A stretch of 64,000 nt of DNA. Source: Candidatus Bathyarchaeota archaeon. Lineage in GTDB: Archaea > Thermoproteota > Bathyarchaeia > Bathyarchaeales > Bathycorpusculaceae. Of the stretch, positions 28,259-46,474 are shown piece after piece (position 1 is the stretch's first letter; each line of letters opens with the position of its first letter). The notes under the pieces are model-generated. The model saw only the letters and a program-made list of their open reading frames with translations, had not been told where the DNA came from and made no database searches. The position numbers were made by a program, and so were the translations under genes. Location of the stretch: NCBI GenBank assembly GCA_963782525.1, contig CAWAKC010000007.1, positions 192,001-256,000 on the forward strand. Reading direction: 5' to 3'.

Positions 28259-28308
28259 TCTATTTCACCATTTAATCTTTCTCTCAGATTTGGATTTAAA
28301 ATTTATGG

Positions 28309-28689
28309 CTAATGCTCGTGATGCTTTGCGTGTTCACATGCGCCCGCTAATGCTTTTAGTTTGCCTTCTTTGAAGCTTTCAACTATTTCCTTTACTGTTG
28401 TTCCAGTGGCTTGTAATACACTTATGCCGGCATCTTGAAGGCTACTTAAGCATCCAGGCCCCATTCCTTTCACAACAAAAATGTTCGGCTTTAAAGCTAA
28501 GAGATGTTCATGCGGATGCCCAGTGCCCCCAACGTGTTCACCCTTGTTCACTTCTGTTCTTACCCCAGTATTGTTGTTGTTCTCGTCTAAATCTACGATT
28601 GTGTAGTATGGTGCTCTTCCGAAATGTTCAGCTAAATGAGCCTCTAAACCCGATTTGTCTTCTGTTGGAATTACGATTCTTTTAGTCAT
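28309..28689 (-). CDS. NifB/NifX-family (dinitrogenase FeMo-cofactor) protein with His-rich tail
   Basis: RIVIPTED, HFGRAPYY, GMG, C-terminal CEHAKHHEH. Confidence 0.88.
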   Translation of the reverse strand: MTKRIVIPTEDKSGLEAHLAEHFGRAPYYTIVDLDENNNNTGVRTEVNKGEHVGGTGHPHEHLLALKPNIFVVKGMGPGCLSSLQDAGISVLQATGTTVKEIVESFKEGKLKALAGACEHAKHHEH

Positions 28690-28735: not shown

Positions 28736-28781
28736 GTTTAAGTACTAAACTCTATTAATAGTTTATGTTGAGAAAACAAAC
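28736..28781. promoter_or_regulatory. Repeated two-box operator/TATA motif, copy A
   Basis: GTTTAagtacTAAAC-tc-TATTAATA-N6-GTTGAgaaaaCAAAC. Confidence 0.75.
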
Positions 28782-28935
28782 AAAAAGAGGTCGAACAAAC
28801 GAATTGTGAATAGACCTCATAAGACATTGTGAATCCATAGGAAGTTATTAAGGGTTGCCGGGTTTACAGTTGGAAGCTTTTTCGATCCCCGTTCTCTTCT
28901 TAACTGAGAATTGAGTGTCTATCAGAAAGGTTGGC

Positions 28936-30206
28936 TTATCTTTCAATTCTCTCCTCTTCTTCATGTGTCTCAGTTGGTGAAACCATTTTTTCTAATGAGT
29001 TTTGATTCAGAAGGCGAATTGCCTCTCTGATTTCTATAGCTTTTGGAAGAGAATAAATCTGTATGAGATTGTCGCCCAATACGTGAAAAGGTCCCTCTCC
29101 AAGACGCCCAGCCAGTACAACATCAACCTTTTCTTCAACCAAAAGATTGGCAGCTTGTATCCCCTTCTTACGCGACAGTGTCGCTCCTTCGTTCTCTCTA
29201 ACATTGAGACTCACAATTTGTCCTTCTTCAACCTCTATGAAGGCAAAATAAGGGGCACTTCCAAATGCAGAACAGCAGGAGAATCCATGCCTTTGTCTTC
29301 TTTTATTGGAATAGCAATCCTTGTTTTTTTCCTATGTGTAAGTCCCACATGAACAGTTATTAACTCCAAGTCTTTGAAACGCTCCTTGATTCTATTTTCT
29401 ACTTCTTCAGATATCGCATGCGCTTTTTCCAGAGAAAGCCCCTCCTGCAACTCCACATGTATTTCACCAAAGAACACAGGACCAGCTTTTCGCAACCTAA
29501 CCTCATGAGTACCCTTAACTCCATGAACACTCCCCGCTATTTCCTTCATTTCCTTAACCCTCTGCGGGCTCAGCGAAACATCCATCAAAACCAGCACAGC
29601 ATCTTTTCCAAACAATAACCCCCTTGCCAGGACATACGCACCCATCACAAAGCCAATCAGAGCCTCACCAGCTGGAAAACCAAGCACCCCTAGAAAAACC
29701 CCGACGAAAACCAACACAGAAGTGTAAACATCTATCATAGAATGCAAACCTTCACTGATTAACGCCTGTGAACCAATTTGGCGTCCCACTCGCCCCTTAT
29801 ATTTAGCAAGCAGATAATAGATAATCGCAGAGAACGCTGCCACAACTAGAGCTATTCCCGAAAATGAGATAACGTAGACCCCAAAAAACTTCTGAAAAGA
29901 CTCTAACATGATCAATATGCTTGATGCCACAAGTATCAAAGACACTGTCAGTAACGCAAATGTTTCTGCCTTATAGTACCCATAGGGGAACCTCTCGGTG
30001 GGTTTTTTCTTTGCGATTCTGAGTCCCACCCAAACAGCAATTGAAGAAAAAACATCCGAGAATGAGTCGATTGTACCAGCCAAGAGAGCTACGCTGCCGC
30101 TAACAACTGCAACGATTCCTTTCAAGATGCCGAGTGCTAGAAGAACAATTGTGGAAAGCTTTGCTGTTTTTTCTCCCTTTCTAAACGATATTCTATTTTC
30201 ACTCAT
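28936..30206 (-). pseudogene. Cation diffusion facilitator fused to a NifB/NifX domain, frameshifted
   Basis: CDF motifs (SVALLA..DS.SD, FPYGY.K.E, H...D) then RIAIP...HFGSAPYF continuing into the 28936-29214 ORF if one base is added at 29263-29265. Confidence 0.8.
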
Positions 30207-30398
30207 TTTTGATTCATCTATTTTTCGAAGTTGTCACGTTATTTCTTACTTAAACGCGCTTATTTCTTTTCAAAAACGATATCTTTTTGATCTGAAGTTT
30301 AATTGCTACCCAAAAAATGGGAGAATTGTGTTTGGACAAGTGGCGTCTATGCATTCTTGAAGTGTTGAAAGGCGTTTGGCTAATCTAACTTGACATTG

Positions 30399-30764
30399 TC
30401 ACTGATCTGTTGGCTGTTTTTTCTCTGATTCAAGCTTTGATTTCAATTCTTTTAGATGTGTTTCTATGTCGTTGATTTCTTGCTCTATGCTGGCTTTCTC
30501 TTCGCCAAATTTCTTTTTGGAGTTTTCCAACGCGACTAGTTCATCTTGTATATTAGGCGTTGGAAACTGATACGCGTATGTTGGGTCTGCCCACCAACAT
30601 CTTGGAAGCCCTGGAAATCTTGCACATGCCTGCGGATTAGCGCCCCCTCCTCTGCCATAACATCTGCCGCCGTATGCACGTCCGGGTCTTTGCCATGGTG
30701 GCAAGTGACTGAATGGTCCTCTGCCGGGCCACTGATCGAAATACGCTCTTCTTCTATATCCCAT
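30399..30764 (-). CDS. DUF5320-like Gly/Arg-rich protein with C-terminal coiled coil
   Basis: WPGRGPFSHLPPWQRPG, GRG repeats, heptad C-terminus; GAGGTGA SD. Confidence 0.7.
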   Translation of the reverse strand: MGYRRRAYFDQWPGRGPFSHLPPWQRPGRAYGGRCYGRGGGANPQACARFPGLPRCWWADPTYAYQFPTPNIQDELVALENSKKKFGEEKASIEQEINDIETHLKELKSKLESEKKQPTDQ

Positions 30765-30792
30765 TTTTGTTTCACCTCTTCCAATTTATTTT

Positions 30793-30830
30793 TGTGTTTA
30801 TGCACACAATTAATTATGTGATAATGCACA
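30793..30830. promoter_or_regulatory. Two imperfect 14-bp palindromes (TGTG-N4-TGCACA), candidate operator
   Basis: TGTGTTTATGCACA (30793-30806) and TGTGATAATGCACA (30817-30830) next to the TATATAAA box in a divergent promoter. Confidence 0.5.
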
Positions 30831-30907
30831 GAAATATATAAAAGTTCTGCACAACATAAACTACATTTAAGGAACCGAAACGGACAAGGTATCGAAGTGT
30901 AAAGAAC

Positions 30908-31066
30908 ATGAGAACAGAGCAAGAAATCAGAAAAAGCCTAAAGACCCTTGAAAATGAGACGCTAACCAATGGGCCATTCACCGAGTTTGAAATAATCGCT
31001 AGAAAAGCAGCACAGCAAGCGTTAGAATGGGTTCTCGAAGAAACAGAGAGCCTGTTAACGTACTGA
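30908..31066 (+). CDS. Small 52-aa helical protein (not in the ORF track)
   Basis: MRTEQEIRKSLKTLE...ARKAAQQALEWVLEETESLLTY; fills the gap upstream of the DUF134 gene. Confidence 0.6.
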   Translation: MRTEQEIRKSLKTLENETLTNGPFTEFEIIARKAAQQALEWVLEETESLLTY

Positions 31067-31103
31067 GCAAAAGGCAAACAAGCTCGAGAGGGAAAAATCT
31101 GCT

Positions 31104-31442
31104 ATGTGGCGAGGAAGACACAGATGCGGCGGACGAGGGAGATTCCCAAAACCCGTTACATTAGGGGTTTTTCCGCATATAACCAGCTTTACGCCTAATC
31201 CATCAAGGAACCTGGAACCTGTTTTCGTTGAATTCGCGGAGGTTGAGGCTTTTAGGCTAGTGGACATGGAGGGTTTGTCGCAGGAAGAAGCTGGACAAAG
31301 AATGAGCATTTCAAGAGGAACCATCTGGAGACTCGTCCAAAGCGCAAGAAAAAAAACCTCACAAGCACTTAGCGAAGGAAAACCAATATACATCGTTACA
31401 TCTAACCCAAATAGAGAAAACCGAAAAAGCGATAAGGAATAG
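31104..31442 (+). CDS. DUF134-family HTH protein
   Basis: E.EAFRLVDMEGLSQEEAGQRMSISRGTIWR...ARKK. Confidence 0.9.
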   Translation: MWRGRHRCGGRGRFPKPVTLGVFPHITSFTPNPSRNLEPVFVEFAEVEAFRLVDMEGLSQEEAGQRMSISRGTIWRLVQSARKKTSQALSEGKPIYIVTSNPNRENRKSDKE

Positions 31443-31474
31443 CTTTTCGTCCTCAAAAGCAGTTAGCCATAGAA

Positions 31475-31945
31475 GTGGAAGAAATGGAAAGTTCCGTTAA
31501 AATTACTGATAGAGTAGAGGATTATCTAAGGATAATCGATAAAATAATTGATAAGCAAGGTTTTGCTAGAACCGGTGATGTTGCTTCGGAGTTGGGAATC
31601 AAGCCAGCAAGTGTTTTTGAAATGCTGAGCAAACTTCAAAAACAGGGGTTGATTGTTCATAAAAAATACGGTGAAGTGAAATTAACCGGAAAAGGTCAAA
31701 GTATGGCAGATGCCATCAACAAGAGACAGGGTACTTTTCTTAAATTTCCAGATATAATTTTAGTTCCACATGACGTTGCAATTAGAGATGCCAATATACT
31801 TGAGCACAAGCTAGACTACACAACAATAATTCAGTTTTAGAAATTCGTTGACTTTATGACCTTAGAGCGACCATATGTCATTAAAAAATGGCGAGAATTC
31901 TTCAAATACTACTCTGGCATGGAAGAGAAAGATAGGCAGAATTGA
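31475..31945 (+). pseudogene. DtxR/MntR-family metalloregulator with premature TAG
   Basis: EDYL, SVFEMLSKL, LT.KG, LEH; in-frame TAG at 31838-31840 followed by a homologous-looking KFVDFM...WREFFKYY tail; usual RRH and C ligands altered. Confidence 0.75.
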
Positions 31946-32066
31946 TCATCAACAATCCCGTAAACTTCTTAATCAATAAATTTATTGCTCAACAAGTCAT
32001 TCATATCTTGTCTAAACAACGGCTTCTTGTGGTCCACATTTTTGCAGGAGTGAAACGGTGAACTAA

Positions 32067-32340
32067 ATGGTATCTGTAGTAGCGGTGGGTTGTCATCCAG
32101 ATGATGTTGAGAGCGGATGTTTTGGTACGTTAACTTTGTATAGGAAAATGAAAGCTGATGTCAAAATCCTTCTATTAACTGGGGGAGAAAATGGTGGAGA
32201 CAAAGAGGTCTGGTTAAGGGCACCGAATCCGCATGTTCAGTTATAGGCGCAACTTTAGTCTATGCAGACTTCAAGGATGGCCAAATAAATCAAGATTTTA
32301 CCAATCTAACCTGTTCTCCCCCAAAAAACCAGTCAAACAA
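32067..32340 (+). pseudogene. PIG-L/LmbE-family deacetylase N-terminal remnant
   Basis: VVAVGCHPDDVESGCFGTL...LTGGENGG, frameshift near 32220, then ESACSVIGA...DFKDG; ends at the IS. Confidence 0.75.
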
Positions 32341-32900
32341 GTGAACTACTCGCCACTTTCGTGGCGAGCATCTCCAGAAAACCGCGTTCACTTAGTCGAG
32401 TTTATTTTCTGTTGATGTATTCTTCGATTTCTGCGCCGGTAACGTCACCTGCAGTCCTCTCAGCGTAACCCTCTGACCACAAATGCCCACCCCAAAGATG
32501 CTTCTTAATATCAGGAAACTCGACGAAAAGCACTCTAGCGGAAACGCATTTGAGAACACGCCTTATCTTAGGGATCGACACTTTTGTTGGAGCAGAAACA
32601 AACACATGCACATGGTCGCCACCATGAACCCTGGCAACTAACAGTTGACAATCATTCTGATCAACAATCGTCTTAAGTACAGCTTCAAGCCTAACTTTAA
32701 CTGAGCCCAAAAGTACCTTGCGCCGGTATTTAGTGGCCCAGATAAGGTGGTAGTTGACTTGGTAAGCACACGTCCGAGCTTTATCCAGTCTCTCATCCCC
32801 TTATCCAACGGTGAGAAAACTAAACAAACGCCAAAAACATACGACTTACGGTACGAATACGCATTCATCCTGCCGCGTTAGCGGCAGGTATTCTGCTATG
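32341..32900. mobile_element. IS200/IS605-family element lacking tnpB (ends approximate)
   Basis: Subterminal hairpins CTCGCCAC-tttc-GTGGCGAG (32349-32368) and CCTGCCGC-gtta-GCGGCAGG (32869-32888) flank tnpA. Confidence 0.8.
32402..32796 (-). pseudogene. tnpA: IS200-type Y1 transposase, probably frameshifted at the 5' end
   Basis: YQVNYHLIWATKYRRKVL, DHVH (HUH), LWGGHLWS.GY, YI; ATG at 32796 is 2 nt out of frame, an in-frame CTG lies at 32788. Confidence 0.85.
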
Positions 32901-33082
32901 TTTTTTACAAACAACAGAGAGTGTTCTTATTACGGAAACTGCAATCGTGGAAGTTGAAAACAATAATTTACAGAATTTTGGATTGAGCGAAAAGAAGCTC
33001 ATACCTTTGCTACACGGGATTTTGCAGTGAAGCTCTTAAAGCAAGACATCAAATTCATTGCTCTTGATAGATCACGAAAAAA

Positions 33083-33943
33083 TTAGCGCAAACAAGTTCT
33101 TTTTAATATTGCAGAGCCTGTTTCCACTCCGACACCTTCGGCTATAATCGGGCACTTCACCTTCATAAGAAAAAACATTTCCTTATGTTGTATATCATTA
33201 AGAGATTCATAGTTACCTTGACCTTTACTAATCACGAGACTACTGGTTTCAAACTCCTCAAGAAACTCTGATGAGCACTCTCTAAACAGCACACCCGTGC
33301 AATCGGCTCCAATTGATATGACATTGGCAATCTTTGTGATCCCAGCTATTTCAGCATCTTGGAATGTTGCGTCATTCAGAATAGGAGCATCCTTGACTGC
33401 ATAAATCACCTCCACATTCTGCCTCAACAACTCTTCTATCAGTATCCTGTCAAAAACTGTTTCTCCAGCGTTATCTGCAAGATACAACACTTGTTTAGAC
33501 CCAAGAAGTGACCCTTTCAGCTTGCCTACATCGTTTATAGCAAGATCATTACTTAACATGTCTTCAACATCTTTTTCCAAGTTTATGTCCACCTTTGGCC
33601 CGAAATCTATTATGTTGCCAGTAATAGCTACCTTAGCCGCAGCAAGTAATGGATCATCCGCAGCTTCAACAATAGCGGCAAGTTTCGGATAAAGCTCCAA
33701 GGCAGCATGATTATATTTCCCCTTCAACTGGCTATACGGATCAGCGTTGCCTGTGACTTTTTTAATGATTCTGTGCACGTTTGTGGCAAGCTCAGGCGTA
33801 GTTCTATCCCATTGCGCGTTTGAAAGATAATTCATTACTTCTCTAAGAGCAGCCTCTCGCGTAGCCATATCAGTAGAACTCATTTTGGTTGCATCTAACG
33901 CTTGTCTTAACAAGCAAGGAATACACTCAAGATGCACTTTCAC
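33083..33943 (-). CDS. DUF89/ARMT1-like damage-control phosphatase
   Basis: ECIPC, DPY, GNIIDFG, DNAGE..FD, ILND, SKGQGNYESL, KC. Confidence 0.92.
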   Translation of the reverse strand: MKVHLECIPCLLRQALDATKMSSTDMATREAALREVMNYLSNAQWDRTTPELATNVHRIIKKVTGNADPYSQLKGKYNHAALELYPKLAAIVEAADDPLLAAAKVAITGNIIDFGPKVDINLEKDVEDMLSNDLAINDVGKLKGSLLGSKQVLYLADNAGETVFDRILIEELLRQNVEVIYAVKDAPILNDATFQDAEIAGITKIANVISIGADCTGVLFRECSSEFLEEFETSSLVISKGQGNYESLNDIQHKEMFFLMKVKCPIIAEGVGVETGSAILKRTCLR

Positions 33944-34932
33944 TTTTCAGCTCCTCCTCTATTCGGCAGCTTCCGCATATAATACCTGTTTCCTTCACAC
34001 TCAAGCTCTACAAGTTTGTCTGCAGCCAGAAGTTTCTCAATGATTCGCCAACCTGAATTTGATTTCCTTAAGAACTCCGTAACTGCTTCGTACCGCATGG
34101 GATGTACAGCCATTATGCTCAACAAATCTTCTTCAACATCCCCAATAAACGCAAATGTATTTCCTTCATAACCAATTAAATATTCAACTCTGTCAACGCC
34201 AAGCTTTTCAGAGAAAAGCTGAAAGGCAGCATTTATAACTTCTTCTCGGGCAGGTTTAACCCAATTCTCTGCTGGCGGTCTAGTAGGAACTGCAATATAT
34301 GCTCTATTTAGTTTTTTCAAACTTGCCAAAAAAGTTGCTATTCCTTCAAATTCGTTTCCGTAATCGATATCATCCAGAAGCATAGTTTCAGTTACAATCG
34401 TTCCCTTAAATGCCTCTGCAAAATCTTGGATGCCCGTCAGAATCGCGCTTAATTCTAAGTCTTTATGAGGTCTGTCAATCTTTCTCCACAAAGCGTTGCT
34501 GATAGCATCTACCTTTAAAGAAACATAATCAGCCTTTAGCAAATCTTGCCTAACATCTTTTAACCAGAGTATTGAAGCGTTAGTTAAGACAGCTATAGGA
34601 ATACCCATTCGCCTTAGAAGCGATATTTCTTGACCTATGTTAACATCTAGGGTTGGCTCTCCATCCGACACAAAAGTGAGATAATCAATTTGCTCATTCC
34701 GCTCGGTGGCATTGGCAACTTTTCGCTGAACTTCGTTCAAAATTTCGCATGGCTGGTAGAAGACTTGACGTTCAACAACATTTGCGTTGGTTTTTCCCAG
34801 CTGGCAATAGACACATGAATAGCTGCACGTCTTTGGGGGTATGTTATTTATTCCTAAGCTTTTTCCCAGACGTCTGGATGGAACAGGACCAAAAGCAATG
34901 GACATTGAATCAGATAGTGTATTCATTTCCAA
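33940..34932 (-). CDS. Radical SAM protein (uncharacterised GPVPSRRLG family)
   Basis: FGPVPSRRLGKSLGIN, CSYSCVYCQLG, DGEPTL. Confidence 0.9.
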   Translation of the reverse strand: MEMNTLSDSMSIAFGPVPSRRLGKSLGINNIPPKTCSYSCVYCQLGKTNANVVERQVFYQPCEILNEVQRKVANATERNEQIDYLTFVSDGEPTLDVNIGQEISLLRRMGIPIAVLTNASILWLKDVRQDLLKADYVSLKVDAISNALWRKIDRPHKDLELSAILTGIQDFAEAFKGTIVTETMLLDDIDYGNEFEGIATFLASLKKLNRAYIAVPTRPPAENWVKPAREEVINAAFQLFSEKLGVDRVEYLIGYEGNTFAFIGDVEEDLLSIMAVHPMRYEAVTEFLRKSNSGWRIIEKLLAADKLVELECEGNRYYMRKLPNRGGAEK

Positions 34933-35126
34933 GACTTTGTTGCCTCATTTTTCTTGTTTGCTCTTTCAACTGAGCAGGTGTACATTTCAGCGATTTCTTT
35001 TCGACACATGCATCCGTGTTTGGTTTTCCCAATTTAGATAAGCTAATTATTGAGCCATAACCATTTGTTTGGCTTTTGCTCATTTTCACCACGGTATCTG
35101 TTGCTTGTTTAAATTATTTCAAAAAT

Positions 35127-35172
35127 GTTTAATAGCTAAACATTATTAATAGTTTCTGTTTATAAAACAAAC
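35127..35172. promoter_or_regulatory. Repeated two-box operator/TATA motif, copy B
   Basis: GTTTAatagcTAAAC-at-TATTAATA-N6-GTTTAtaaaaCAAAC, ending immediately before the ATG at 35173. Confidence 0.8.
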
Positions 35173-36498
35173 ATGAGCTTAGTCGGAGATCAAACAATGG
35201 ATAACCTTAACGGGAAACAGAACAAACCAAGCGTTTACGATTCACGGGCAAATTGGCCACCCTACACCTACCGAGATTACCCAAACATAAAAGCTGAAAC
35301 GTACAAGGCCTTCACGGAGTTCTTGAATACGGAGAACACGTCAGGTAGACTCATGGAGTTGCAGCCGTGGATTTCAATCTGCGATTCAAAATGCGCGTTT
35401 TGTTATTTCCCAACGACAGCTACAAACAAGGTGCAGATAGAGACGTATCTTCAACTGTTAAAGAAAGAACTGGAAATGTATGCTAAAACAAAGTATGTCA
35501 AGACAAGCATGTTTGACGAGATAGTTTTGGGCGGCGGAACCCCAAGCGTACTCACATCTGAGCAGATGATTGATCTCATAGACTTTTGCAAATCAAACTT
35601 CCCCATAAACAAAGAATACTTCATAAAAGTCTCCGGTTCCTCCAAGACGTTGGCTCTCAAGAAAATTGATAAACTCGCCGAATACGGCGTTTACCAATTG
35701 GATATGGGTGCCCAAACATTTGATGACAAAATCCGAAAACTAATGTGCCTGCCCGACTCCGCGGCAAGCGTGGAAAACGCAATTAAACACGCACGCAAAC
35801 TCGGCTTATGTGTATGCGTTGACTTCATGTACAACTTTCCAACTCAAACAATGGAAAGCTGGATAAACACGCTTAAAAAAGCCATAGAGTTAGATGTAGA
35901 AATTGACGCTTACTCGTTGCACGTTGACTCTGGTACTCCGCTTGAGAAAATGATTAAAACGGGTGTGCTTCCTCCGCCTGGCGACGCGGAATACGAGAAG
36001 GAAATGTACTTGGCTGCGTACAAGCTTTTGACCGAAGCAGGATACAAAGCAGTGGGTCACGACCGCTACAGCCGAGTGGAATGGCACATGCGTGAGAACT
36101 GCCTCAACGGCTGGCCTTGGGGCGGAATCCTCACCACAGGTGCAGGCTGCTTCATGGGTTACCTGCAACGGTTCTCGTACTCTAACATAGATAACGTAAA
36201 TGATTACATGGCAACCGTTAGCTCTGGCAAACTGCCCATTCAACGGCTTTGCGAATCCACGGATGACGACATGATGCGGCGAGAAATGAGCAGGCTTTAT
36301 TTGCGGTTGCCCGTGAGTAAAAAGGAGTTTTTGGAGAAATTCGGCAAACTTCCCGAAGATGTCTTCCCACAGCAGCTGAAGAACCTTAAGGCTAAGGGCT
36401 TAATCGAGGTTGACGGCAAAGAAGTTCGTTTGACTAAGCAGGGTGAAGTGTGGAAGGGCAACATTGCTTGGGAATTCGCACCCACAACTGCTAAATAA
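35173..36498 (+). CDS. HemN/HutW-like class C radical SAM protein (paralog of 20893-22170)
   Basis: CDSKCAFC, LGGGTPS, DMGAQTF, DFMYNFP.Q, LTKQG. Confidence 0.88.
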   Translation: MSLVGDQTMDNLNGKQNKPSVYDSRANWPPYTYRDYPNIKAETYKAFTEFLNTENTSGRLMELQPWISICDSKCAFCYFPTTATNKVQIETYLQLLKKELEMYAKTKYVKTSMFDEIVLGGGTPSVLTSEQMIDLIDFCKSNFPINKEYFIKVSGSSKTLALKKIDKLAEYGVYQLDMGAQTFDDKIRKLMCLPDSAASVENAIKHARKLGLCVCVDFMYNFPTQTMESWINTLKKAIELDVEIDAYSLHVDSGTPLEKMIKTGVLPPPGDAEYEKEMYLAAYKLLTEAGYKAVGHDRYSRVEWHMRENCLNGWPWGGILTTGAGCFMGYLQRFSYSNIDNVNDYMATVSSGKLPIQRLCESTDDDMMRREMSRLYLRLPVSKKEFLEKFGKLPEDVFPQQLKNLKAKGLIEVDGKEVRLTKQGEVWKGNIAWEFAPTTAK

Positions 36499-36521
36499 AA
36501 AAAACAGATAGCGAGACTATG

Positions 36522-37097
36522 CTACTTTGAAGTCTTTGTTAGTAACCCATTTTTTGCAGATACAAAAACAGCGGCTGCAATAGTTGTTGTCCAAAAACCA
36601 TTCTTGTCTCCAGTGGCTGACTGCGTAATATTAGCTGTCTTTATAATTAGCCCCGTTGTTTTGAAGAGTTGTTTGCGTTCATCCCAAGCAGTTTTAGGAT
36701 CAAACTGGATACCCATAGTAGTAGCTAACATAGTAGCGGCTAGGTCTTCTGCATATTCCCCTGCAGCTTCATCCGTTTGCCCAAAGGAGTGGTGTTCACT
36801 GAGATAGCCGTACTGGTTTTTCTCCGATGGGATGGCAACACCGATAGATGATACAAGCAATCTATGTGGTTCCATAGCGGAGTTTCTAGCCAGAACCACA
36901 TAGGTGATTTCTCCGGGCTGCAACATCTTCAAACCCTGCTCTTGTGAAATCAATTTGCATCCAGCCGGAACTATGCTTGAAACATTCACAAGGTTACAAT
37001 ACTGAATGCCCGCATCTCTTAACGCAAGCTCAAAAGACTGCAATTGGTCTCTGTGTTTGCCGACACCCTTAGTCAGAAAAAATAATTCAGGTATCAT
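36522..37097 (-). CDS. pdaD: Pyruvoyl-dependent arginine decarboxylase
   Basis: [11 protein letters not shown]...[10 protein letters not shown] (Ser-Ser cleavage site), [16 protein letters not shown]. Confidence 0.93.
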
Positions 37098-37968
37098 GAT
37101 TTCCTGCTCCTAGAAATTCACTCATCTTGTTCCACATGTTCTTTATTTCGTCCGATACACCACTCTTGGGCGAGTATTCAACAACTGTTTTTCCATTAAC
37201 CATCGCTTGAGTAACTTCAGGGCTAAAGGGAATGATTCCCACAACTTCAATTCTGTTTTCCTTGCAGAAACTCAAAATCTTGTTAGTATTGCCCGTGTTT
37301 ACATCGTACATGTTTATGCAAACAAAGGGAGCAACATTAAAATGGTCTAGCAGTTGCAGGACTCTTTCAAGATCATGGATACCAGAAAGGGTCGGTTCAG
37401 TAATCACCAACGCAGCATCTACCCCAGTAATAGAAGCTATAACGGGACAGCCAATTCCCGGTGAACCATCGATAATAATTAGATCGCACTTTGCCTTCTC
37501 GGCAAGTATTTTGGCGTTCTGCCTAACCAGAGTGACAAGTTTTCCAGAATTCGACTCACCTGGATGAAGCAGGGCATGCGACATGAAACCATATTTAGTC
37601 TTTGAAATATAGGCCTCTCCAGACACCCTTTCAGCCAAAGTTATAGCATTTTTTGGGCAAACAACTGCGCAGACTCCGCACCCTTCGCAGGCAATAACGT
37701 CAACATTCAAATTACTAGTTATAGCGTCGAAGATACATTTCTCTTTGCATAAACCGCATTTGACACATTTTGTTTCGTCGATGACAGCTACCTTTGACCC
37801 TTTAAACTCTTGCGCTTTAATTATTTCGGGATGCAGAAGCATGTGAAGGTCAGGCGCGTCCACATCACAGTCAGCGACTACAGCGTTTTTTGCCAGAACA
37901 GCAAAAGAAGCGGTTATTGATGTTTTGCCAGTGCCGCCCTTGCCGCTTAACACAGTTAACTGCTTCAT
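37087..37968 (-). CDS. MinD-superfamily P-loop ATPase with inserted ferredoxin domain
   Basis: [18 protein letters not shown], two CxxCxxC motifs, NSGKLV, GCP, VITEPT. Confidence 0.9.
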
Positions 37969-38801
37969 TTTGTGGCTAACACCTTGATTTTATTGTAGAG
38001 CACTTGAAATTTATCTGCCCACTCAGGCATTTCCAAGCTAAACGGAATACCTTTAGAGTAGAGTTCAGCTATTCGTCTTTCATAAGGAATTTCCAAAAGA
38101 ATACGGATGCTCTCTTTTCCACAGTAATCATACACTTTTTTGTCACCTATGCCAGCGCGGTTAATAACTACACCAAAAGGAATCCCAACTTTTCGCAAAA
38201 CCTCAACTGCTATCTTCAAGTCATGTAAACCAAAAGGAGTAGGTTCAGTCACTAAAATACAGAAGTCACTGCCTCTAACAGTTTCCACAAATGGGCATGA
38301 GGTTCCAGGCGGAGAATCAAGAATCACATTTTTCTCCTCTGTAATCTGTTTTTTAACAGCTTTTATGACTGGAACAGCCATAGGCTTGCCTACTTCAAGC
38401 TCCCCATAAACAAGAGCCACTCCGTCAGTTGCACCAAAATTCAGCGTACCGATTTTGTGCTTTTCCCAAGTAATTGCCTTTCTTGGGCAAACCATAGCGC
38501 ATCCACCGCAGCTATGGCAGAGCTCTGGAAAAACAAGAATTTTCTCGGAGGCTACAAATATAGCGTTAAACTGGCAGAATTTTGTGCATTCCCCACAAGT
38601 GTTACAAAGGGTTCTATCTACTTTCGGGATTAAAGTGTAAACTGCTTCTTTTTTAGTCATTTCAGGATGCAAAAGCAGATATGCATTGGGCTCTTCAATG
38701 TCACAATCCAAAAGTTGAACGTTACCTACTGAAAGAGCCAGGTTTACCGCTACCGATGTTTTTCCCGTTCCACCTTTTCCACTAGCAACAGACACAATCA
38801 T
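37965..38801 (-). CDS. MinD-superfamily P-loop ATPase with inserted ferredoxin domain
   Basis: [43 protein letters not shown]. Confidence 0.9.
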   Translation of the reverse strand: MIVSVASGKGGTGKTSVAVNLALSVGNVQLLDCDIEEPNAYLLLHPEMTKKEAVYTLIPKVDRTLCNTCGECTKFCQFNAIFVASEKILVFPELCHSCGGCAMVCPRKAITWEKHKIGTLNFGATDGVALVYGELEVGKPMAVPVIKAVKKQITEEKNVILDSPPGTSCPFVETVRGSDFCILVTEPTPFGLHDLKIAVEVLRKVGIPFGVVINRAGIGDKKVYDYCGKESIRILLEIPYERRIAELYSKGIPFSLEMPEWADKFQVLYNKIKVLATK

Positions 38802-38844
38802 TTACTTACCTCTGAATATACACTTAAGAAAAAAATGGAGTTGA

Positions 38845-39237
38845 CTATATCTCTGAGCGTCCCTTTAGTTTTTCATACTCGGCGATTGCCTTTCGCAACG
38901 TTTTTATAGACAGCGTTGCGCAGTCGTGCTTTAACTTTGGCAAACCTCCAAGTTCATCCAATAGGGATTCTTCCGTCATCTTCTTCGCTTGATTAACAGT
39001 CTTGTCTTTCAAGAGCGTAGTCATAGCAGACGCTGAAGCAGCCGAACCAGGGCAGCCTAAATAAAAGAACGTGGCGCCTTCTATTTTGTCTTTTTTGTTG
39101 ATCTTTAGATATAGTTTTATGAGGTCGCCGCATGGACCAAGAAAAGTAGTGACAACACTAGGGTTCTCTAATGTGCCTACGTTAACATTGTTCACGTATA
39201 GATCGATTGCTTTCTTAGAGTACCCTGACTCAATCAT
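38845..39237 (-). CDS. IscU/NifU-like Fe-S scaffold
   Basis: YS..., GPCGD, GC...ASAS, HDCA: three conserved Cys. Confidence 0.88.
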   Translation of the reverse strand: MIESGYSKKAIDLYVNNVNVGTLENPSVVTTFLGPCGDLIKLYLKINKKDKIEGATFFYLGCPGSAASASAMTTLLKDKTVNQAKKMTEESLLDELGGLPKLKHDCATLSIKTLRKAIAEYEKLKGRSEI

Positions 39238-39315
39238 CAGTTTCAGTTCTTCGTCTGATAGTTTCCGTGACGTTTTTCCACCTCCAGAGCCACATCATCA
39301 CCATTGATTTCCACA

Positions 39316-39708
39316 TTAATGGTGATGCTCATGATGTTCATGTTGTTCATGCCCACAACCTTCGGTAAGCTCTTGGAGCTTGTCGTCTTTATAGGCGGCA
39401 ACCACTTTGTCAACCGTGTCTTCATTGGATCTTAGCACTGCAACTCCTGCGTTCTTAAAAATATCAATAGCCTTAAACCCCATATCATGGACAATTACGG
39501 CAGTCGGTTTCAACTCCAAAATGTGGTCTGGTGCAACACCTACGCCACCTGCATGCTCGCTAACGTTTGGAACAGACTTAACGTTTGAAACTTCACCTTT
39601 CTCGTCAAAGTCAACAACGGTATAGTATGGAGCTCTTCCAAAATGCTCTGCTAAACTTGCTTTCAAGCCATTTTGATCTTCTGAAGGGATTACTATTCTA
39701 TCTGTCAA
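39316..39708 (-). CDS. NifB/NifX-family protein with His-rich tail
   Basis: HFGRAPYY, C-terminal CGHEQHEHHEHH; paralog of 28309-28689. Confidence 0.88.
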   Translation of the reverse strand: MTDRIVIPSEDQNGLKASLAEHFGRAPYYTVVDFDEKGEVSNVKSVPNVSEHAGGVGVAPDHILELKPTAVIVHDMGFKAIDIFKNAGVAVLRSNEDTVDKVVAAYKDDKLQELTEGCGHEQHEHHEHHH

Positions 39709-39790
39709 TTACCTCACACCTCCATTTCTATTAACTCGAACATGTTCTTAGTTTGCTTAGTCGAAACTCGGTTTAATTTGTTTATGTGCT

Positions 39791-40177
39791 TCATCTTCCC
39801 CCGCCTCGCCCTCGGCCCATTCCGGAATGTTCGCCCACTGTAGGCGTGCCAGTTTTTCCATACTCGCCTTTCTTGAACTTTTCAACAACATCTTTGACAG
39901 TTCCGGATGCGCCGGTCACAATTTCTATGCCAGCCGCTGACAATGCCCCGAAGGCGTTAGGTCCAACATTTCCAGTTATGACCACTTTGACACCTTTGTT
40001 TGCTATGGTTTGTGCTGCTTGGATTCCTGCGCCGCCTGTTGCGCCTGCAGCCATGTTTGGAATTGCTTCAAACTGCATTGTTTCAGAATCCACAACTATA
40101 AGGTAGGGGCATCTACCGAAGCGAGGATCTAACTGCGCTTCCAAATTGTCTGCTGTTGCACTTACACATATTTTCAT
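39791..40177 (-). CDS. NifB/NifX-family protein
   Basis: DPRFGRCPY, GGAGIQAAQ, TGNVGPNA, GRGRGGGR tail. Confidence 0.9.
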   Translation of the reverse strand: MKICVSATADNLEAQLDPRFGRCPYLIVVDSETMQFEAIPNMAAGATGGAGIQAAQTIANKGVKVVITGNVGPNAFGALSAAGIEIVTGASGTVKDVVEKFKKGEYGKTGTPTVGEHSGMGRGRGGGR

Positions 40178-41115
40178 TTTTTTATCTCCTTATAATGATG
40201 AGTACCCGTATTTTCTAAGAATAGGTCAATCTTCTGGACAATCTCCATGAACGCCTTAGCTGCAGGAGAGGTTTTGTTTTCAGTAATGAAAGTCAATCCG
40301 TTGTCTGAGTCGTTACAGATGCTAGGGTCTATTGGAATACTGCCTAAGAGAGGAACTGACATCTCTTCAGCTATCTTTTTCCCTCCACCGGTTTTAAAAA
40401 TGTTAACTTTAGCTCCGCATTCAGGACAGACAAAACCACTCATGTTCTCAACTATGCCGATTATAGGTACGCCTATTTGCTTGGCAAACGTGACGGCCTT
40501 TTTGACTACGCCTTGCGAAACTTCAGAAGGCATAGTCACAATGACGACGCCGTCCATGTCTGGAATCAACTGGGCAACGCTCAATGATTCGTCTCCAGTT
40601 CCAGGCGGCAGGTCGATGAATAAATAGTCCAGTTCTCCCCATGTTACGTCAGATAGAAATTGTTGGATAGCTTTCATTTTCAATGGACCGCGCCAAATAA
40701 CAGGTGCTTCATCGTTTGGAAGAAAAAAATCCATTGATACAACTTTTATTCCTAGTTTGCCAGTAACTGGAAACATCATTCCCCCTGGCCCGCCTACAAG
40801 CGTCTGCCCTTTAAGGCCAAGCATCTTTGGAATACATGGACCGTGAATATCTGCATCAAGAACCCCGACTTTATCTTTGTGACCTTGCAATGCGAAGGCC
40901 ATGGCAAGATTTGCGGTTACGGTGCTTTTGCCAACGCCACCCTTGCCGCTGATAATTGCTACTTTATGCTTAATTTTGCTCAGTTTCAATTTTAGTTTTT
41001 GCTCTTGTTCATACTGTTGCTTTCTCTGATCCTCGCAACCGTCAGATGTTGAGCATGAATTGCATTTCCCGTCACATTCCTCAGCGACGTTCACCTGCTT
41101 CGTTGTATTTGTCAT
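40174..41115 (-). CDS. mrp: Mrp/NBP35 Fe-S carrier ATPase
   Basis: N-terminal Cys cluster, SGKGGVGKST, DADIHGP, WRGP, DLPPGTGD, ENMSGFVCPEC. Confidence 0.93.
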   Translation of the reverse strand: MTNTTKQVNVAEECDGKCNSCSTSDGCEDQRKQQYEQEQKLKLKLSKIKHKVAIISGKGGVGKSTVTANLAMAFALQGHKDKVGVLDADIHGPCIPKMLGLKGQTLVGGPGGMMFPVTGKLGIKVVSMDFFLPNDEAPVIWRGPLKMKAIQQFLSDVTWGELDYLFIDLPPGTGDESLSVAQLIPDMDGVVIVTMPSEVSQGVVKKAVTFAKQIGVPIIGIVENMSGFVCPECGAKVNIFKTGGGKKIAEEMSVPLLGSIPIDPSICNDSDNGLTFITENKTSPAAKAFMEIVQKIDLFLENTGTHHYKEIKK

Positions 41116-41140
41116 TTTTTCACCGTCTAATGCGGAATTA

Positions 41141-41186
41141 GTATATTAGGTAAATAATATTAATACCTTTTGTTTATAAAATAAAC
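41141..41186. promoter_or_regulatory. Repeated two-box operator/TATA motif, copy C
   Basis: GTATAttaggTAAAT-aa-TATTAATA-N6-GTTTAtaaaaTAAAC, upstream of the mrp operon. Confidence 0.75.
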
Positions 41187-41616
41187 TAAGTCATTTAGTC
41201 TATAACACTTGGTAACAGTAATACTTCATCAATAGATTCACAGAGTCTATTGCCAATTTCACTTTTCTTGAAATCACAACACCCTTCCAGTCTGTTTTAG
41301 TTACACTTCCTCTGAGCATTCATTATTAAAATTTCACAAATGGAGATATCATACATTGTTACATAATCCTGTGGACTTTCAAGTTGAAACATCGCTCTAG
41401 ATTTAGAGGCCCAGAAACCCTCCTTATTGGGCGTATTAAGTTTCTCTGACATGAAATAGCGCGCTGCCTTGTCCCGATATTAGGTGTCAAAGTAGGTTAA
41501 CTATGATCAAAGGAATCATAATATTACAGGTTTATGAGGGGTTGTAGTTGGAGGGTTACAGTCACACGTAGTTATATTATCGTGCGCGTTAATTCAACTA
41601 TAAAAGATGATATTAT

Positions 41617-41787
41617 ATGGCACACTGTCATGATATGAAAATAGGTCAGGTTTATTTTTGTGAAGAATGTGGACTCGAACTAAAGGTTGAAAAGAACTGC
41701 ACTGTAGACGGTAACCACCCCAAAGGAGTATCTTGTACTCGTTGCGTTCATGTCTGCTGCAACAAAGATATGAAATTAAAAGCGTAA
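41617..41787 (+). CDS. 56-aa Cys/His-rich desulforedoxin-like metal-binding protein (not in the ORF track)
   Basis: MAHCHDMKIGQVYFCEECGLELKV...CTRCVHVCCNKDMKLKA: CxxCG plus CC..M desulforedoxin pattern. Confidence 0.75.
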   Translation: MAHCHDMKIGQVYFCEECGLELKVEKNCTVDGNHPKGVSCTRCVHVCCNKDMKLKA

Positions 41788-41802
41788 TCAAGCGTTGATG
41801 AT

Positions 41803-41907
41803 ATGTGTGAAGATGTTCCGAAGAAAGATGGTTCTGGAAAAGGTAGAGGGCAGCTTGGGAAAGGTTGCGATAGGAAGCCGCGAAAGAGAAAAGGAAAGAA
41901 TCAATAA
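41803..41907 (+). CDS. Possible 34-aa basic Gly/Lys-rich peptide
   Basis: MCEDVPKKDGSGKGRGQLGKGCDRKPRKRKGKNQ, 15 nt after the previous ORF; resembles DUF5320-type N-termini. Confidence 0.4.
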   Translation: MCEDVPKKDGSGKGRGQLGKGCDRKPRKRKGKNQ

Positions 41908-42344
41908 AGTTATCGAGCTTAGGCATATCTGCAACAACAGCTGGACTTTTCGGGCGAGGCACCTTCTACTCTAAAGTTCACAACGCGCGAAATACTCTCA
42001 TGAAGAGTTAATGCTTCGAGAATCAAAACCATCATCTGAACTATTTCGGTAAAGAAAAAAGGGATAGCGGAGACTTCGCGTGCGTAAATATAACAGTCTT
42101 GGCATAAAACTTATACATGAAAATTATGGGAGTCTCCCTCTTTGAGGATTACCCTACAACTACCACACTGAATGCAGATAATCACTTTAATTATACTTCC
42201 CTTTGTTTATTTCCCTTGCGCTTCAGCTGTCAAAACATCCAGCATAACTACACATTCGGCTTTTAAAGCATAAGCAACACGAGCTTATTTGAAATGGACA
42301 AAATTATTCAGCCACACGCCTCGTTGAAGAGCAGGAACTGTTAG

Positions 42345-44423
42345 TTACGAACCTTTTGGTTTGTAAGTACACCATGGTTCCTCTGCTAAGTAGTCACCGT
42401 GCAGTTCAGTAGGTTCATGTAAATCGCCACAGAAATCTATGAAATCGCTAGTCAACCCATAAGCCCGAGCTCGGCAACCGCCGCAAACCTCATTATACTC
42501 ACATTTACCGCATTTGCCTTTCAGTTTCTTGAAATCTCGCAGGTTTCGAAGAACCTCTGAGTTGAACCAGATGTCCTTAAAGGATTTTTGGCGGATGTTA
42601 CCCAGAGCAATCGGAAGATAAGGACAAGGCGTAACTTCTCCAGTAGGGTAGATGCGACAGTAATATAACCCAGCCATGCAGCCTCTGACCCAACGGGTCA
42701 TGTCAATTCCAGTTTCCTGTGCAATACGCATGAACTGGGGTGCACAAGACGGCTTAACGTTAAGATTATACTGCATACTCTTTGAGAATGAAGAAGTGAT
42801 AATCTTTTCGTACATTTCAGGAGTTATATCTTCGATTCTTGCCCCTCTGCCCGTAGGAACTAAAAAGAACAAATGAAAATTCTCTGCGCCCAATTTTTCA
42901 GCTAAGGCAAAGATATCGCCCATTTGAGTGTAATTCTGCCGCGTCACAGTTGTGTTTACCTGAACAACTACTTCATTTCTTTTGAGTGCTTTAATTGCTT
43001 CCACAGCTCGTTGCCAAGAGCCTGTTACTCCTCGAAATTGATCATGCAATTCAGGCACGCTTGAGTCGAGACTGATTGACACCGTAGTTATCCCTGCATC
43101 TTTCAGTTTCCGCGCCACAATATCGTTAATTAGCATGCCGTTGCTCCCCATCGCCATCTTTAAACCGCGCTCTGTACCATATCTGATGAGTTCAAAAATG
43201 TCCTTTCTGAGCAGAGGTTCCCCGCCGCTTAGAATAAGTAAAGGTTTGCTGACTTCGGCAATCTGATGTATAAGCAGTTTTGCAGCATCAGTACTGAGTT
43301 CACTAATGTCTTTCTTTTCATCTGCATTTATGTAGCAGTGTGCACATTTCAAGTTGCATTTTGCTGTCACGTTCCAAGAAATCACCAGAGGAATGAATTT
43401 CGCTTTAGCCTCGTTTGATGGTTGGGCAAGTTTAAGGTGAAATTCGCATTTCCCATCAGAGGACATTCGTTTAGGTCGCGACATTTCAAATGTGAAAGGC
43501 AGAACAGTTTCAAACATAGCCTTTGCGTGGGCAACACAGAAATGATTGCAGAAGAGTTCAGCTGTTCCAGCCTCTGCCTTGAGTCTATCCAATATGTAAT
43601 TATGGCTTCCAAAGATAGGGCAATTCAAAAACCGCATAGAACCCTCTAGCTCAGACATATTCATCTTAAATTCAATATAATGGTCACTTAGCATGATTGT
43701 CTGCAGTTTCTGCCTCGAGATTCCAGCTCTAAGAGTCACGTTGAGGGCGGCAGTTGCCGTTGCCTTTCCAAACTTTTCTTGGACGCTATCCATAACCTTG
43801 CTGACGCGTTCGATCCCAAGATTACTTGTCAAATCAGCCAGAATCAAGAAGCCCTTTATTGTCGCGTATTCTTGCCTCATACGCATATCAATGACATTTG
43901 TCGCCCATTCTAAGAATGTTCTTTGCAACTCAAGTTCAGCGTTAAAATCTTCTCTTTTAAGCATGATTTCAACGGTTTTGGTCTTTTCTGTAAGTTTTTC
44001 GAATAAGGCGATTTTTTCTTCTTCTTCCAGGGTGACTTTGCATAATGTTGGTTTAGAGTTGACCTCTATTTTCAGCTTTTTGGTGAGTTCTTTAACATCC
44101 GAAACAAACGCGTCGAAGAAAGTCAACTCGCGAGCGGTGACGTCAGGTTCATCAAGTCCAAGTTCCTCCAATACAAATTTGGGCTCTGCCTCCATTTTAG
44201 TCACCATCGCCATATGATAAAGCAAAGATCCTTCCATACCAGGATCTGTGTCCTTGCTGTTTCGCGATTCTTCGCCATGAAAAATTTCAGAGACAAACAT
44301 CTGGGCTGTTTCAAAGTTTCCAGAGTGTATTGCTGCTATTGCTTGCTCCATCTTGCGACTTCTTTTTTCTAATAAAACAGCCCATTTGTGGCAATGTGCC
44401 TCATTGTATCTCGTCAGTTCCAT
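42345..44423 (-). CDS. Ahb/NirJ-like radical SAM/SPASM enzyme with a roughly 340-aa N-terminal fusion
   Basis: ISWNVTAKCNLKCAHCY, SGGEPLLR, FFLVPTGRG, PSCAPQF, GCMAG..YC.I...G.V.PCPY, KGKCGKCEY..VCGGCRARA. Confidence 0.88.
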   Translation of the reverse strand: MELTRYNEAHCHKWAVLLEKRSRKMEQAIAAIHSGNFETAQMFVSEIFHGEESRNSKDTDPGMEGSLLYHMAMVTKMEAEPKFVLEELGLDEPDVTARELTFFDAFVSDVKELTKKLKIEVNSKPTLCKVTLEEEEKIALFEKLTEKTKTVEIMLKREDFNAELELQRTFLEWATNVIDMRMRQEYATIKGFLILADLTSNLGIERVSKVMDSVQEKFGKATATAALNVTLRAGISRQKLQTIMLSDHYIEFKMNMSELEGSMRFLNCPIFGSHNYILDRLKAEAGTAELFCNHFCVAHAKAMFETVLPFTFEMSRPKRMSSDGKCEFHLKLAQPSNEAKAKFIPLVISWNVTAKCNLKCAHCYINADEKKDISELSTDAAKLLIHQIAEVSKPLLILSGGEPLLRKDIFELIRYGTERGLKMAMGSNGMLINDIVARKLKDAGITTVSISLDSSVPELHDQFRGVTGSWQRAVEAIKALKRNEVVVQVNTTVTRQNYTQMGDIFALAEKLGAENFHLFFLVPTGRGARIEDITPEMYEKIITSSFSKSMQYNLNVKPSCAPQFMRIAQETGIDMTRWVRGCMAGLYYCRIYPTGEVTPCPYLPIALGNIRQKSFKDIWFNSEVLRNLRDFKKLKGKCGKCEYNEVCGGCRARAYGLTSDFIDFCGDLHEPTELHGDYLAEEPWCTYKPKGS

Positions 44424-44456
44424 CGTACTCCTGATAAAGTTTCCTGCAAAATCACG

Positions 44457-45668
44457 TCAATTTTTCGAACTTGACGCTTGTAGCTGCCCAGAACTATTTC
44501 CTTCAGCGGCTTTTCGCAATAATGCTGCTTTGTCAGTTCTCTCCCATGTGAAGTCAGGATCGTTTCTTCCGAAATGTCCAAACACAGCGGTTTTTCTATA
44601 TATCGGTCTTTGAAGATCTAAGTGATCTATGATTGCTTTGGGTCTCATGTCAAAATATTTTTTTACCAATTCGAGGATTTTCTCATTAGGTATCTTGCCC
44701 GTACGAAACGTGTTTACCATTACTGAGACTGGTTGGGCAACACCTATTGCATAGGATATTTGGGTCTCGCATTGATCTGCCAATCCTGCCGCAACAATGT
44801 TTTTGGCGATGTATCTTGCCATGTAGCAGCCTGAGCGGTCAACTTTTGAAGGGTCTTTGCCTGAGAAACAGCCTCCGCCATGCCTTCCGACGCCACCATA
44901 CGTGTCAACGATGATTTTCCGACCCGTTAAGCCTGAATCTGCTAAGGTTCCTCCGACCACGAATCTTCCTGTTCCATTGACTATGTACTTTGTCTCTGAA
45001 TCCAGCAGGTTGGCAGGTATAACTTTCTTTATCACCTGATTTATGATGTCTTCCCGTATCTTCTCTGCATCAATCTCGGGAGCATGTTGAGCAGCAATTA
45101 CGACGGCATCCACCCTCTTTGGTTTTCCATTAACATATTCAACGGTAGCCTGAGATTTACCATCCGGTCGTAAATAGGGCAATATTCCTTTTTTCCTACA
45201 TTCAGACAGTCTTTCAACAAGTTTATGTGCAAGCATAATAGGTAAAGGCATCAACTCTTTTGTCTCATTTGTGGCATAGCCGAATACCATGCCCTGGTCT
45301 CCAGCCCCCTGTTCATGTCCATTGCTTTCGTTCACACCTACTGCGATATCTGGAGACTGCTCCGTAAAAGAAACTAGGATACCGCAGGTTTCGGAGTCCA
45401 AACCGTCTTTAGCGTTGTCAAAACCTATTTCCTTCAAAGTCTTTCTAACAACGTTTGGGATAGGTACATAGCAGGAAGTTGTGATTTGACCTGTGACTAT
45501 GATGTTGCCTTGCATGATTAATGTTTCACAATCTACCCTTGCTTTAGGGTCTTTGCTAATTATGGCATCTACGACGCTGTCCGATATTTGGTCTGCGACT
45601 TTATCGGGATGACCCTCTGCAACGGATTCAGAGGAAAACATGTGCCGACCATTTATTGTTGAGGCCAT
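44457..45668 (-). CDS. metK: S-adenosylmethionine synthetase, bacterial/eukaryotic type
   Basis: [71 protein letters not shown]. Confidence 0.96.
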
Positions 45669-45833
45669 ATGTAACCCTTCAGCTTTCCTTTTTTACCTTT
45701 CAAGGTAGACCTGAACTCTTTTCCTAGTTTTTTACGCAAGGGGGTTAAGCTTAAATCATATTTAACGTTAAATTCATTCATTCTTGTCACCGTTTTCTGC
45801 TTGATTCATGGTAAGGCGTGCATTTTAAAAACA

Positions 45834-45879
45834 GTTTAATAGATAAACCTTATTAATACTTTATGTTTATAAAATAAAC
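45834..45879. promoter_or_regulatory. Repeated two-box operator/TATA motif, copy D
   Basis: GTTTAatagaTAAAC-ct-TATTAATA-N6-GTTTAtaaaaTAAAC, 11 nt before the Lrp start and divergent from metK. Confidence 0.8.
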
Positions 45880-46460: not shown

Positions 46461-46474
46461 ACCGGAGCCATGAC

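Follow-up and report, generated by a model that had tools for sequence, protein, structure and literature searches.

A 46-bp two-box signal around the core promoter of Fe-S-handling genes in Bathyarchaeia and its probable regulator, a cysteine-tailed Lrp

Which protein reads four nearly identical 46-bp promoter elements in a 64,000-nucleotide stretch of a Candidatus Bathyarchaeota archaeon, and which genes does it govern? The stretch (contig CAWAKC010000007.1, positions 192,001 to 256,000), referred to here as the window, carries next to one of these elements the gene of a regulator with Lrp/AsnC fold and a cysteine-rich tail. As judged by comparing sequences, the 46-bp element is very probably the operator of this adjacent Cys-tailed Lrp. 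Its conserved targets are an mrp-nifX-iscU-ATPase operon, which resembles the orange protein (ORP) cluster, and a nifX-osmC-flavodoxin operon, and the cysteine tail may sense iron-sulfur (Fe-S) clusters or oxidation.

The element has the form GTTTA-N5-TAAAC, 2 nt, TATTAATA, 6 nt, GTTTA-N5-YAAAC. Its two boxes are spaced by 31 bp, and its central TATA is accompanied by a B recognition element (BRE). The four copies start at 28736, 35127, 41141, and 45834:

28736-28781: operator/promoter 1; left box 28736-28750, TATA 28753-28760, BRE (minus strand) 28761-28766, right box 28767-28781 (one mismatch)
35127-35172: operator/promoter 2, exact; left box 35127-35141, TATA 35144-35151, BRE 35152-35157, right box 35158-35172
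41141-41186: operator/promoter 3; left box 41141-41155 (two mismatches), TATA 41158-41165, BRE 41166-41171, right box 41172-41186
45834-45879: operator/promoter 4, exact, predicted to be autoregulatory; left box 45834-45848, TATA 45851-45858, BRE 45859-45864, right box 45865-45879

All four are intergenic. Positions, spacing, and neighbouring genes agree with a first-pass annotation of this DNA, to which we add small first open reading frames (ORFs) behind the sites at 35127 and 45834. The pattern that it ascribed to all four copies is exact at these two and slightly relaxed at the others, by one mismatch in the right box at 28736 and by two in the left box at 41141.

With up to three mismatches allowed, the full pattern matches four times in the window and not once in 100 shuffles. 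A position weight matrix (PWM) scan of the 2.87-Mb Bathyarchaeia genome retrieved the four window sites alone (scores 52-59, next best 18.5); thus, the motif is not common at unrelated promoters. Leave-one-out PWMs scored the held-out sites at 37.5-50.1 and everything else in the genome at 21.2 or less. A PWM built from orthologue sites gave 46.9-71.5 for the window sites, the only other score above 8 being the reverse reading of one site (10.8), and a wider PWM found no match above 20 on 1.47 Mb of shuffled loci. Sampling metagenomes by the motif first returned at least 122 loci. Among the matches listed there were 111 distinct sites, of which 89 have lrp to the right and 78 have mrp or nifX to the left (six left sides are unassigned, eight lie at contig ends). 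Shuffles, genome-wide uniqueness, and metagenome context rule out chance occurrence or a common promoter as the source of the motif. The operator is real and, on comparative genomics, well supported, and this 46-bp signal around the core promoter of Fe-S-handling genes occurs in many uncultured archaea. Across 126 distinct sites, the right box is perfect in 103 and the left box in 71. In five loci (L002, L003, L055, L064, L066), the stretch between mrp and lrp carries two complete elements in tandem, separated by 125-225 nt, as if each direction had its own.

The candidate regulator is encoded 11 nt behind operator 4:

45891-46460, plus strand: Lrp/AsnC-fold regulator, 189 aa; helix-turn-helix (HTH) domain 1-48, RAM domain ~60-144, cysteine tail 160-189

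Linkage was scored with a PWM derived from the three window sites not adjoining lrp, applied within 100 nt upstream of lrp. It reached at least 20 at 107 of 111 lrp matches in 110 loci (one contig-edge match excluded), and the best 46-mers comprise 81 distinct sequences. Relatives closest to the Lrp are found almost exclusively in records named Bathyarchaeia; outside this class, 10 of 20 loci score above 26, and lrp is divergent from mrp in 11 of the 20. Among 37 genomes of the genus, 22 contain the Lrp (two of them in broken form) and 22 the motif: 21 have both, 14 neither, one (G009, 56% complete, with the gene at a contig end) the Lrp only, and one (G024) the motif only. Co-occurrence, which the first-pass annotation had put forward for checking, thus extends to 21 of the 22 Lrp genomes; its converse is borne out in the 14 genomes without this Lrp and fails in G024. 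The motif stays with lrp in nine genomes in which the ORP ATPase was not found. Conversely, no site accompanies three ORP clusters (L213-L215) whose genomes lack a close Lrp; the ORP contig of G044 is too short to include the promoter. A strict pattern search of 24 other genomes hit three of ten with a close Lrp and none of 14 without. The broken lrp genes of L108 (G028) and L128 (G023) retain a perfect motif.

Box type also goes along with the recognition helix of the protein, as compared in 119 non-redundant proteins with the tail and a quick tree. Upstream of the 89 proteins with an xx[ML]G helix, GTTTA-N5-TAAAC was found in 84 cases and GTTAC-N5-GTAAC in none. The 22 proteins with an SHV or SHA helix comprise 11 with GTTAC-N5-GTAAC, one with the GTTTA type, five ties, and five with no box within two mismatches; eight proteins with other helices show no clear box. 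In nine genomes holding both clades, read by eye, each paralogue has its own box type in six, with two ties and one weak case. In three SHV-clade loci, two boxes keep the 31-bp spacing without a TATA between them, which suggests that the spacing is set by the protein. A sister clade (L141-L144, L161-L168, L380) has the GTTAC-N5-GTAAC box in the same TATA layout, and its neighbours, by eye, include thioredoxin-like, permease, TauE, and B12 radical-SAM genes. L144 carries two sites, indicating a second regulon.

Could the boxes belong to another protein, with lrp merely one target? A DUF134 gene, a truncated DtxR-like gene, and a TrmB-like gene lie in the window, a global factor is conceivable as well, and G024, with the motif and no close Lrp found, would suit such an owner. 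However, no DUF134 turned up in 12 of the 22 genus genomes that carry the motif, and G005 has DUF134 without the motif; dtxR and trmB are present in 2 and 9 of 80 related loci, respectively, and box type follows the Lrp helix even between paralogues of one genome. The three neighbours are ruled out on distribution, and foreign ownership in general is very unlikely.

Several observations count against the pairing of box and Lrp. G024 is a 93% complete assembly (180 contigs), and in G039, which has the Lrp, the ORP cluster lacks a site. The 14 genus genomes without the Lrp likewise lack the ORP ATPase, so that absence of the motif is partly loss of the whole module. Kin among genomes and loci are not independent. 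Ten of the 22 SHV/SHA proteins show a tie or no box, and since each of the two clades forms a single branch in the quick tree, the covariation of helix and box amounts to one evolutionary event. With all this on the scale, linkage, helix/box match, and regulon content make it very likely that the Lrp at 45891 is the controller, including of its own gene, as the first-pass annotation had proposed.

By fold and site anatomy the protein is a member of the Lrp/AsnC family outside every named subfamily. PF13404, the AsnC-type HTH, is matched with 41.2 bits (cut-off 27); PF01037 reaches 24.6 bits, just below its cut-off of 25, and the RAM domain was assigned together with the structure match. The structure model (predicted local distance difference test score, pLDDT, 93) matches solved Lrps over residues 1-150 (E 4.5e-11), the best of them with Z 14.2 and a root-mean-square deviation (rmsd) of 1.9 over 145 residues. 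An identity as AhbA/B siroheme decarboxylase was rejected, as 4czd matches with Z 9.4 and rmsd 4.8 only. The named subfamilies (LysM, LrpA, Lrp, AsnC, ChrS) score 22-51 bits against NCBIfam cut-offs of 180-250. Atlas clusters of the Lrp are archaeal, most commonly labelled Bathyarchaeota, Thorarchaeota, Methanobacteriota, and Thermoplasmatota; Korarchaeota and Methanomicrobia appear in the source names as well.

According to the available text of a 2010 review (PMC2995911), archaeal Lrp sites are inverted repeats of 13-17 bp with an AT-rich centre that recur at a distance of two or three helical turns. With FL11/PH1519, LrpA, Ptr2, LysM, Ss-LrpB, and BarR, as described there, the present system shares the HTH and RAM fold, 15-bp inverted repeats with an AT-rich centre, the three-turn spacing, a site before the regulator's own gene, and the known repressor and activator positions. 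It differs in a 40-residue tail with five cysteines plus C85, uncovered by any solved Lrp, in scores below every NCBIfam Lrp cut-off, in boxes on both sides of the BRE-TATA, in its Fe-S and redox targets, and, compared with FL11, in an Asn at the Asp position of the G-x-x-D loop. The word "cysteine" is absent from the available text of that review.

The cysteines in question are C161, C165, C168, C176, and C179 in the tail, which has CxxxCxxC spacing, and C85 outside it. The 119-protein set had been filtered on the tail, so its tail cysteine counts would be circular, and distant representatives were used instead (the best 150 at 50% identity). In the 112 of 169 aligned rows that span HTH and tail, rows which the profile favours, C85, C165, C176, and C179 occur in 112, C168 in 111, and C161 in 109. 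Further Cys-tailed Lrps are fused to a KaiC-like ATPase, a response-regulator receiver (REC), or GAF, and a tandem duplicate occurs as well (P0124, P0131, P0176, P0231, P0241, P0123).

Whether an Fe-S cluster is the cofactor of this module we consider evenly balanced. The cysteines might instead bind zinc or a different metal in a structural role or form a thiol-disulfide switch, the cue then being a metal, sulfide, peroxide, or a small molecule bound in the RAM pocket. Nothing significant came up for the tail in Pfam, PDB-sequence, or atlas searches, hence no Fe-S family, and the weak, non-significant matches include zinc-finger-like entries. (HTH matches in the tail profile search were due to one of 50 alignment rows covering the wrong part of the gene.) Folded alone, the tail has a pLDDT of 52. 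Moreover, five or six cysteines would equally suit zinc or disulfides, and the same tail stands in sister clades with other neighbours (by eye, thioredoxin-like, permease, TauE, B12 radical SAM, and heterodisulfide reductase-like ORFs) and in the fusions to REC, GAF, and KaiC-like domains. The null searches and the number of cysteines speak against a cluster. A zinc or thiol module is nevertheless unlikely in view of a core regulon devoted to Fe-S handling, the CxxxCxxC spacing, and the invariance of C85 outside the tail.

How are the boxes placed with respect to transcription? A BRE-TATA PWM was trained on 46 tRNA upstream regions of the same genome, independent of the motif. Over 144 sites it gave a mean of 8.1 for the minus strand over the central TATA and at most 2.5 for any single plus-strand register, and the BRE is on the minus strand at all four window sites. 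The BRE orients the central TATA leftwards, and the main transcript is presumably minus-strand. The suggestion of the first-pass annotation that the palindromic TATA could fire either way is thereby narrowed: a plus-strand promoter scores equally well only at the two sites between divergent genes (11.2 at 35127, where the candidate overlaps the left box, and 8.5 at 45834). Plus-strand candidates have a mean of 7.5 at lrp-adjacent sites versus 6.0 at others, with a p value inflated by kinship, and lrp sites show no excess of plus-strand TATAs within the left box (p 0.25). Non-lrp sites score 9.1 on average, comparable to tRNA promoters. The RNA contigs, four sets from relatives with a word share of 0.02-0.09, are of a kind from which start sites, strand, and levels are unreadable.

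The archaeal TATA is conventionally placed at -30 to -23. In this register the left box spans roughly -20 to -6 and, as the main transcript presumably runs leftward, separates the TATA from the start site; the right box borders the BRE on its upstream side and also covers the predicted lrp start. Section 8 of the review (PMC2995911) assigns the former position to repression by LrpA and the latter to activation by Ptr2, LysM, and Ss-LrpB.

The genes behind the four sites are arranged as follows:

36522-41115, minus strand: core ORP-like operon; mrp 40174-41115, nifX-domain 39791-40177, nifX-domain 39316-39708, iscU-like 38845-39237, two ferredoxin-bearing P-loop ATPases 37965-38801 and 37087-37968, pyruvoyl arginine decarboxylase 36522-37097
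26958-28689, minus strand: second conserved operon; nifX-domain 28309-28689, osmC-like 27842-28258, flavodoxin 27286-27822, DUF5752-like 26958-27248
42345-45781, minus strand: accessory operon (site 45834); 42-aa ORF 45653-45781, metK 44457-45668, radical SAM/SPASM 42345-44423
33083-35083, minus strand: accessory operon (site 35127); 57-aa ORF 34910-35083, radical SAM 33940-34932 (330 aa), ARMT1-like phosphatase 33083-33943
35173-36498, plus strand: HemN/HutW-like radical SAM, a second copy that scores under every NCBIfam cut-off; start at 35173 or 35200
46415-47482, plus strand: metallo-beta-lactamase (MBL)-fold gene, directly after lrp

Gaps within these operons range from -23 to 82 nt, and PF02579 (NifX domain) is over cut-off in four window ORFs. 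The first ORFs behind the sites at 35127 (35083, 57 aa) and 45834 (45781, 42 aa) carry a GGTGA ribosome site. The metK gene is of the bacterial type (TIGR01034 over cut-off). The radical SAM/SPASM protein resembles AhbD/NirJ2 in its C-terminal half, below cut-off; its 340-aa N-terminal part contains cysteines and has no Pfam match, and a 56% identical full-length copy is found elsewhere in the genome. The HemN-like gene occupies the place held by lrp at most other sites.

Which of these targets are conserved was surveyed in 80 loci of at most 20 kb, with leftward runs behind a site defined by gaps below 450 nt, a definition that may overreach. The runs contain nifX in 74 loci, mrp in 40, Fe-S ATPases in 38, iscU in 30, osmC in 27, flavodoxin in 18, and DUF5752 in 17. 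Occasional targets are redox or Fe-S proteins, namely ferredoxin (8), CdhA-type carbon monoxide dehydrogenase (CODH; 5), FprA, peroxiredoxin, and CMD (1 each); arginine decarboxylase is found in 7. To the right, the MBL-fold gene directly follows lrp in 40 of the 80 loci, and a SPASM radical-SAM gene comes next in 20; lrp and the MBL gene are likely co-transcribed. Behind the motif, a conserved ORF of about 60 aa and no family (L005:9497-9916 and similar) precedes ferredoxin in 8 of 80 loci and at 8 of the 111 metagenome sites among the matches listed. The cdhA-type CODH gene of the window (11157-13502, minus strand) has no site there, yet its type provides the five CODH cases.

The first-pass annotation had instead seen a dedicated regulon feeding S-adenosylmethionine (SAM), clusters, and electrons to radical-SAM enzymes for an unknown product. 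Indeed, two of the four window sites have metK and three radical-SAM genes next to them, and the radical-SAM link persists as the lrp-MBL-SPASM order in the 20 loci just mentioned. As a conserved supply system it dissolves on comparison: among 80 loci, metK stands behind a site in 6 (and at 4-5 of 111 metagenome sites among the matches listed), SPASM radical SAM in 4, the 330-aa radical SAM in 2, and the HemN-like gene in 1. HemN-like orthologues in four other genomes have no site, and the other genomic copies of metK, hemN-like, AhbD-like, and mrp (77, 85, 56, and 68% identical) are all motif-free. Given the rarity of metK and HemN-like targets and these motif-free copies, metK (SAM supply) and the radical-SAM genes are local additions to the regulon, and an interpretation centred on them is highly improbable.

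The core of the regulon is rather the ORP-like cluster, overlooked in that annotation. With the ORP cluster of Desulfovibrio vulgaris, in the parts of the source at hand (PMC6345978), it shares Mrp, NifX-domain proteins, and two ferredoxin-bearing P-loop ATPases. The likeness to Orp3/Orp4 consists in adjacent proteins that combine ParA/CbiA with Fer4, assigned by domain content, and that to Orp8 in a NifX-domain protein with PF02579 over cut-off. MrpORP/Orp9 is Mrp fused to NifX; here, mrp and nifX are adjacent separate genes, and NF041136 gives 352.8 bits on mrp against a cut-off of 450. The Desulfovibrio cluster is run by the [4Fe-4S] redox sensor OrpR, as stated in the accessible part of PMC8359166. 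Both systems have a small local regulon, a divergent regulator gene, and conserved regulator cysteines. OrpR is a PAS-AAA+-HTH sigma-54 activator (same source), in contrast to the 189-aa Lrp fold at an archaeal BRE-TATA promoter seen here. NifX-domain genes, the most constant targets, recall IssA/SipA (PF2025) of Pyrococcus furiosus by domain alone, a NifX-domain protein that is induced by iron and sulfide and stores Fe-S according to the available text of PMC5524996.

Some further window genes lie close to the conserved operons. A 56-aa Cys-rich ORF (41617-41787, plus strand) has a weak desulfoferrodoxin N-terminal match (E 0.029), with similar DNA on contig C11. A DUF5320-like gene (30399-30764, minus), DUF134 (31104-31442, plus), a short DtxR-like gene (31475-31840, plus), and what we take to be a transposase-like remnant (32402-32710, minus) follow each other, with no motif between the divergent DUF5320-like gene and DUF134. 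The DUF5320-like region has the deepest cover in two of the four RNA contig sets, a measure that cannot rank genes.

How might the switch work? Feedback repressors of the IscR/SufR type, when loaded with a cluster, repress cluster-handling genes and themselves. The logic proposed here would be the same on an unrelated fold, and we give it an even chance: a BRE-TATA promoter flanked by Lrp operator boxes, where a cluster-holding Lrp would repress the ORP-like operons and lrp and release them on cluster loss or oxidation. One Lrp dimer would bind each 15-bp box, three helical turns apart on a single DNA face. Occupancy of the left box would block RNA polymerase on the leftward transcript; the right box, which abuts the BRE in the activator position of archaeal Lrps, would also cover the predicted lrp start. 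Because the right box is better conserved, occupancy of one box may leave the targets unaffected or activate them, and occupancy of both may repress them. The cluster-loaded Lrp would repress, and a missing or oxidised cluster would make it let go. Given an Fe-S cofactor, it is somewhat probable that the loaded form is the repressing one; repression is favoured by promoters near consensus, one box in the path of the polymerase, and OsmC, peroxiredoxin, FprA, and flavodoxin as targets.

The same Lrp could, however, follow the logic of OrpR, its reduced, cluster-loaded form activating the ORP-like operons in anoxia from the BRE-adjacent box and oxidation or high protein level shutting them off via the second box. 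The BRE-adjacent box is the best conserved one and lies in the activator position (PMC2995911, section 8), and, as the available text of PMC8359166 reports, OrpR activates the orp operons at low redox potential; oxygen-sensitive CdhA is among the targets in 5 of 80 loci. Both the position of the right box and the CdhA and ferredoxin targets, which would be expected of activation in a reducing environment no less than of derepression, tell against repression. Activation is nonetheless unlikely, as the promoters are on a par with tRNA promoters in score (non-lrp mean 9.1) and activated archaeal promoters tend to depart from consensus (PMC7408454, in the part available), and as OsmC, peroxiredoxin, FprA, and flavodoxin are targets.

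Tentatively, the feedback reading could be widened: a widespread archaeal Lrp subfamily may have swapped amino-acid sensing for an Fe-S cluster in a new six-cysteine module, forming the archaeal feedback switch of Fe-S cluster handling, which would clamp the BRE-TATA from both sides and flip between activation and repression with cluster state, with sister clades reusing the sensor on boxes and regulons of their own. No description of a cluster- or redox-sensing Lrp or of this operator was found in the literature searched, with subscription papers, regulon databases, and supplements outside its scope.

The findings provide a testable set of regulator, operator, and regulon for Bathyarchaeia and other Thermoproteota, abundant archaea of sediment and peat with almost no mapped regulation. 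Through the regulon, the ORP cluster is linked to OsmC, flavodoxin, ferredoxin, CODH, and oxygen-defence genes, and these links point to cluster supply or repair. The Cys-tailed Lrp plausibly works like OrpR or IscR while being unrelated to either. If its cysteines hold a cluster, this would be a sensing mode that we have not found described for the Lrp family, and OrpR would have an archaeal counterpart built on a different fold.

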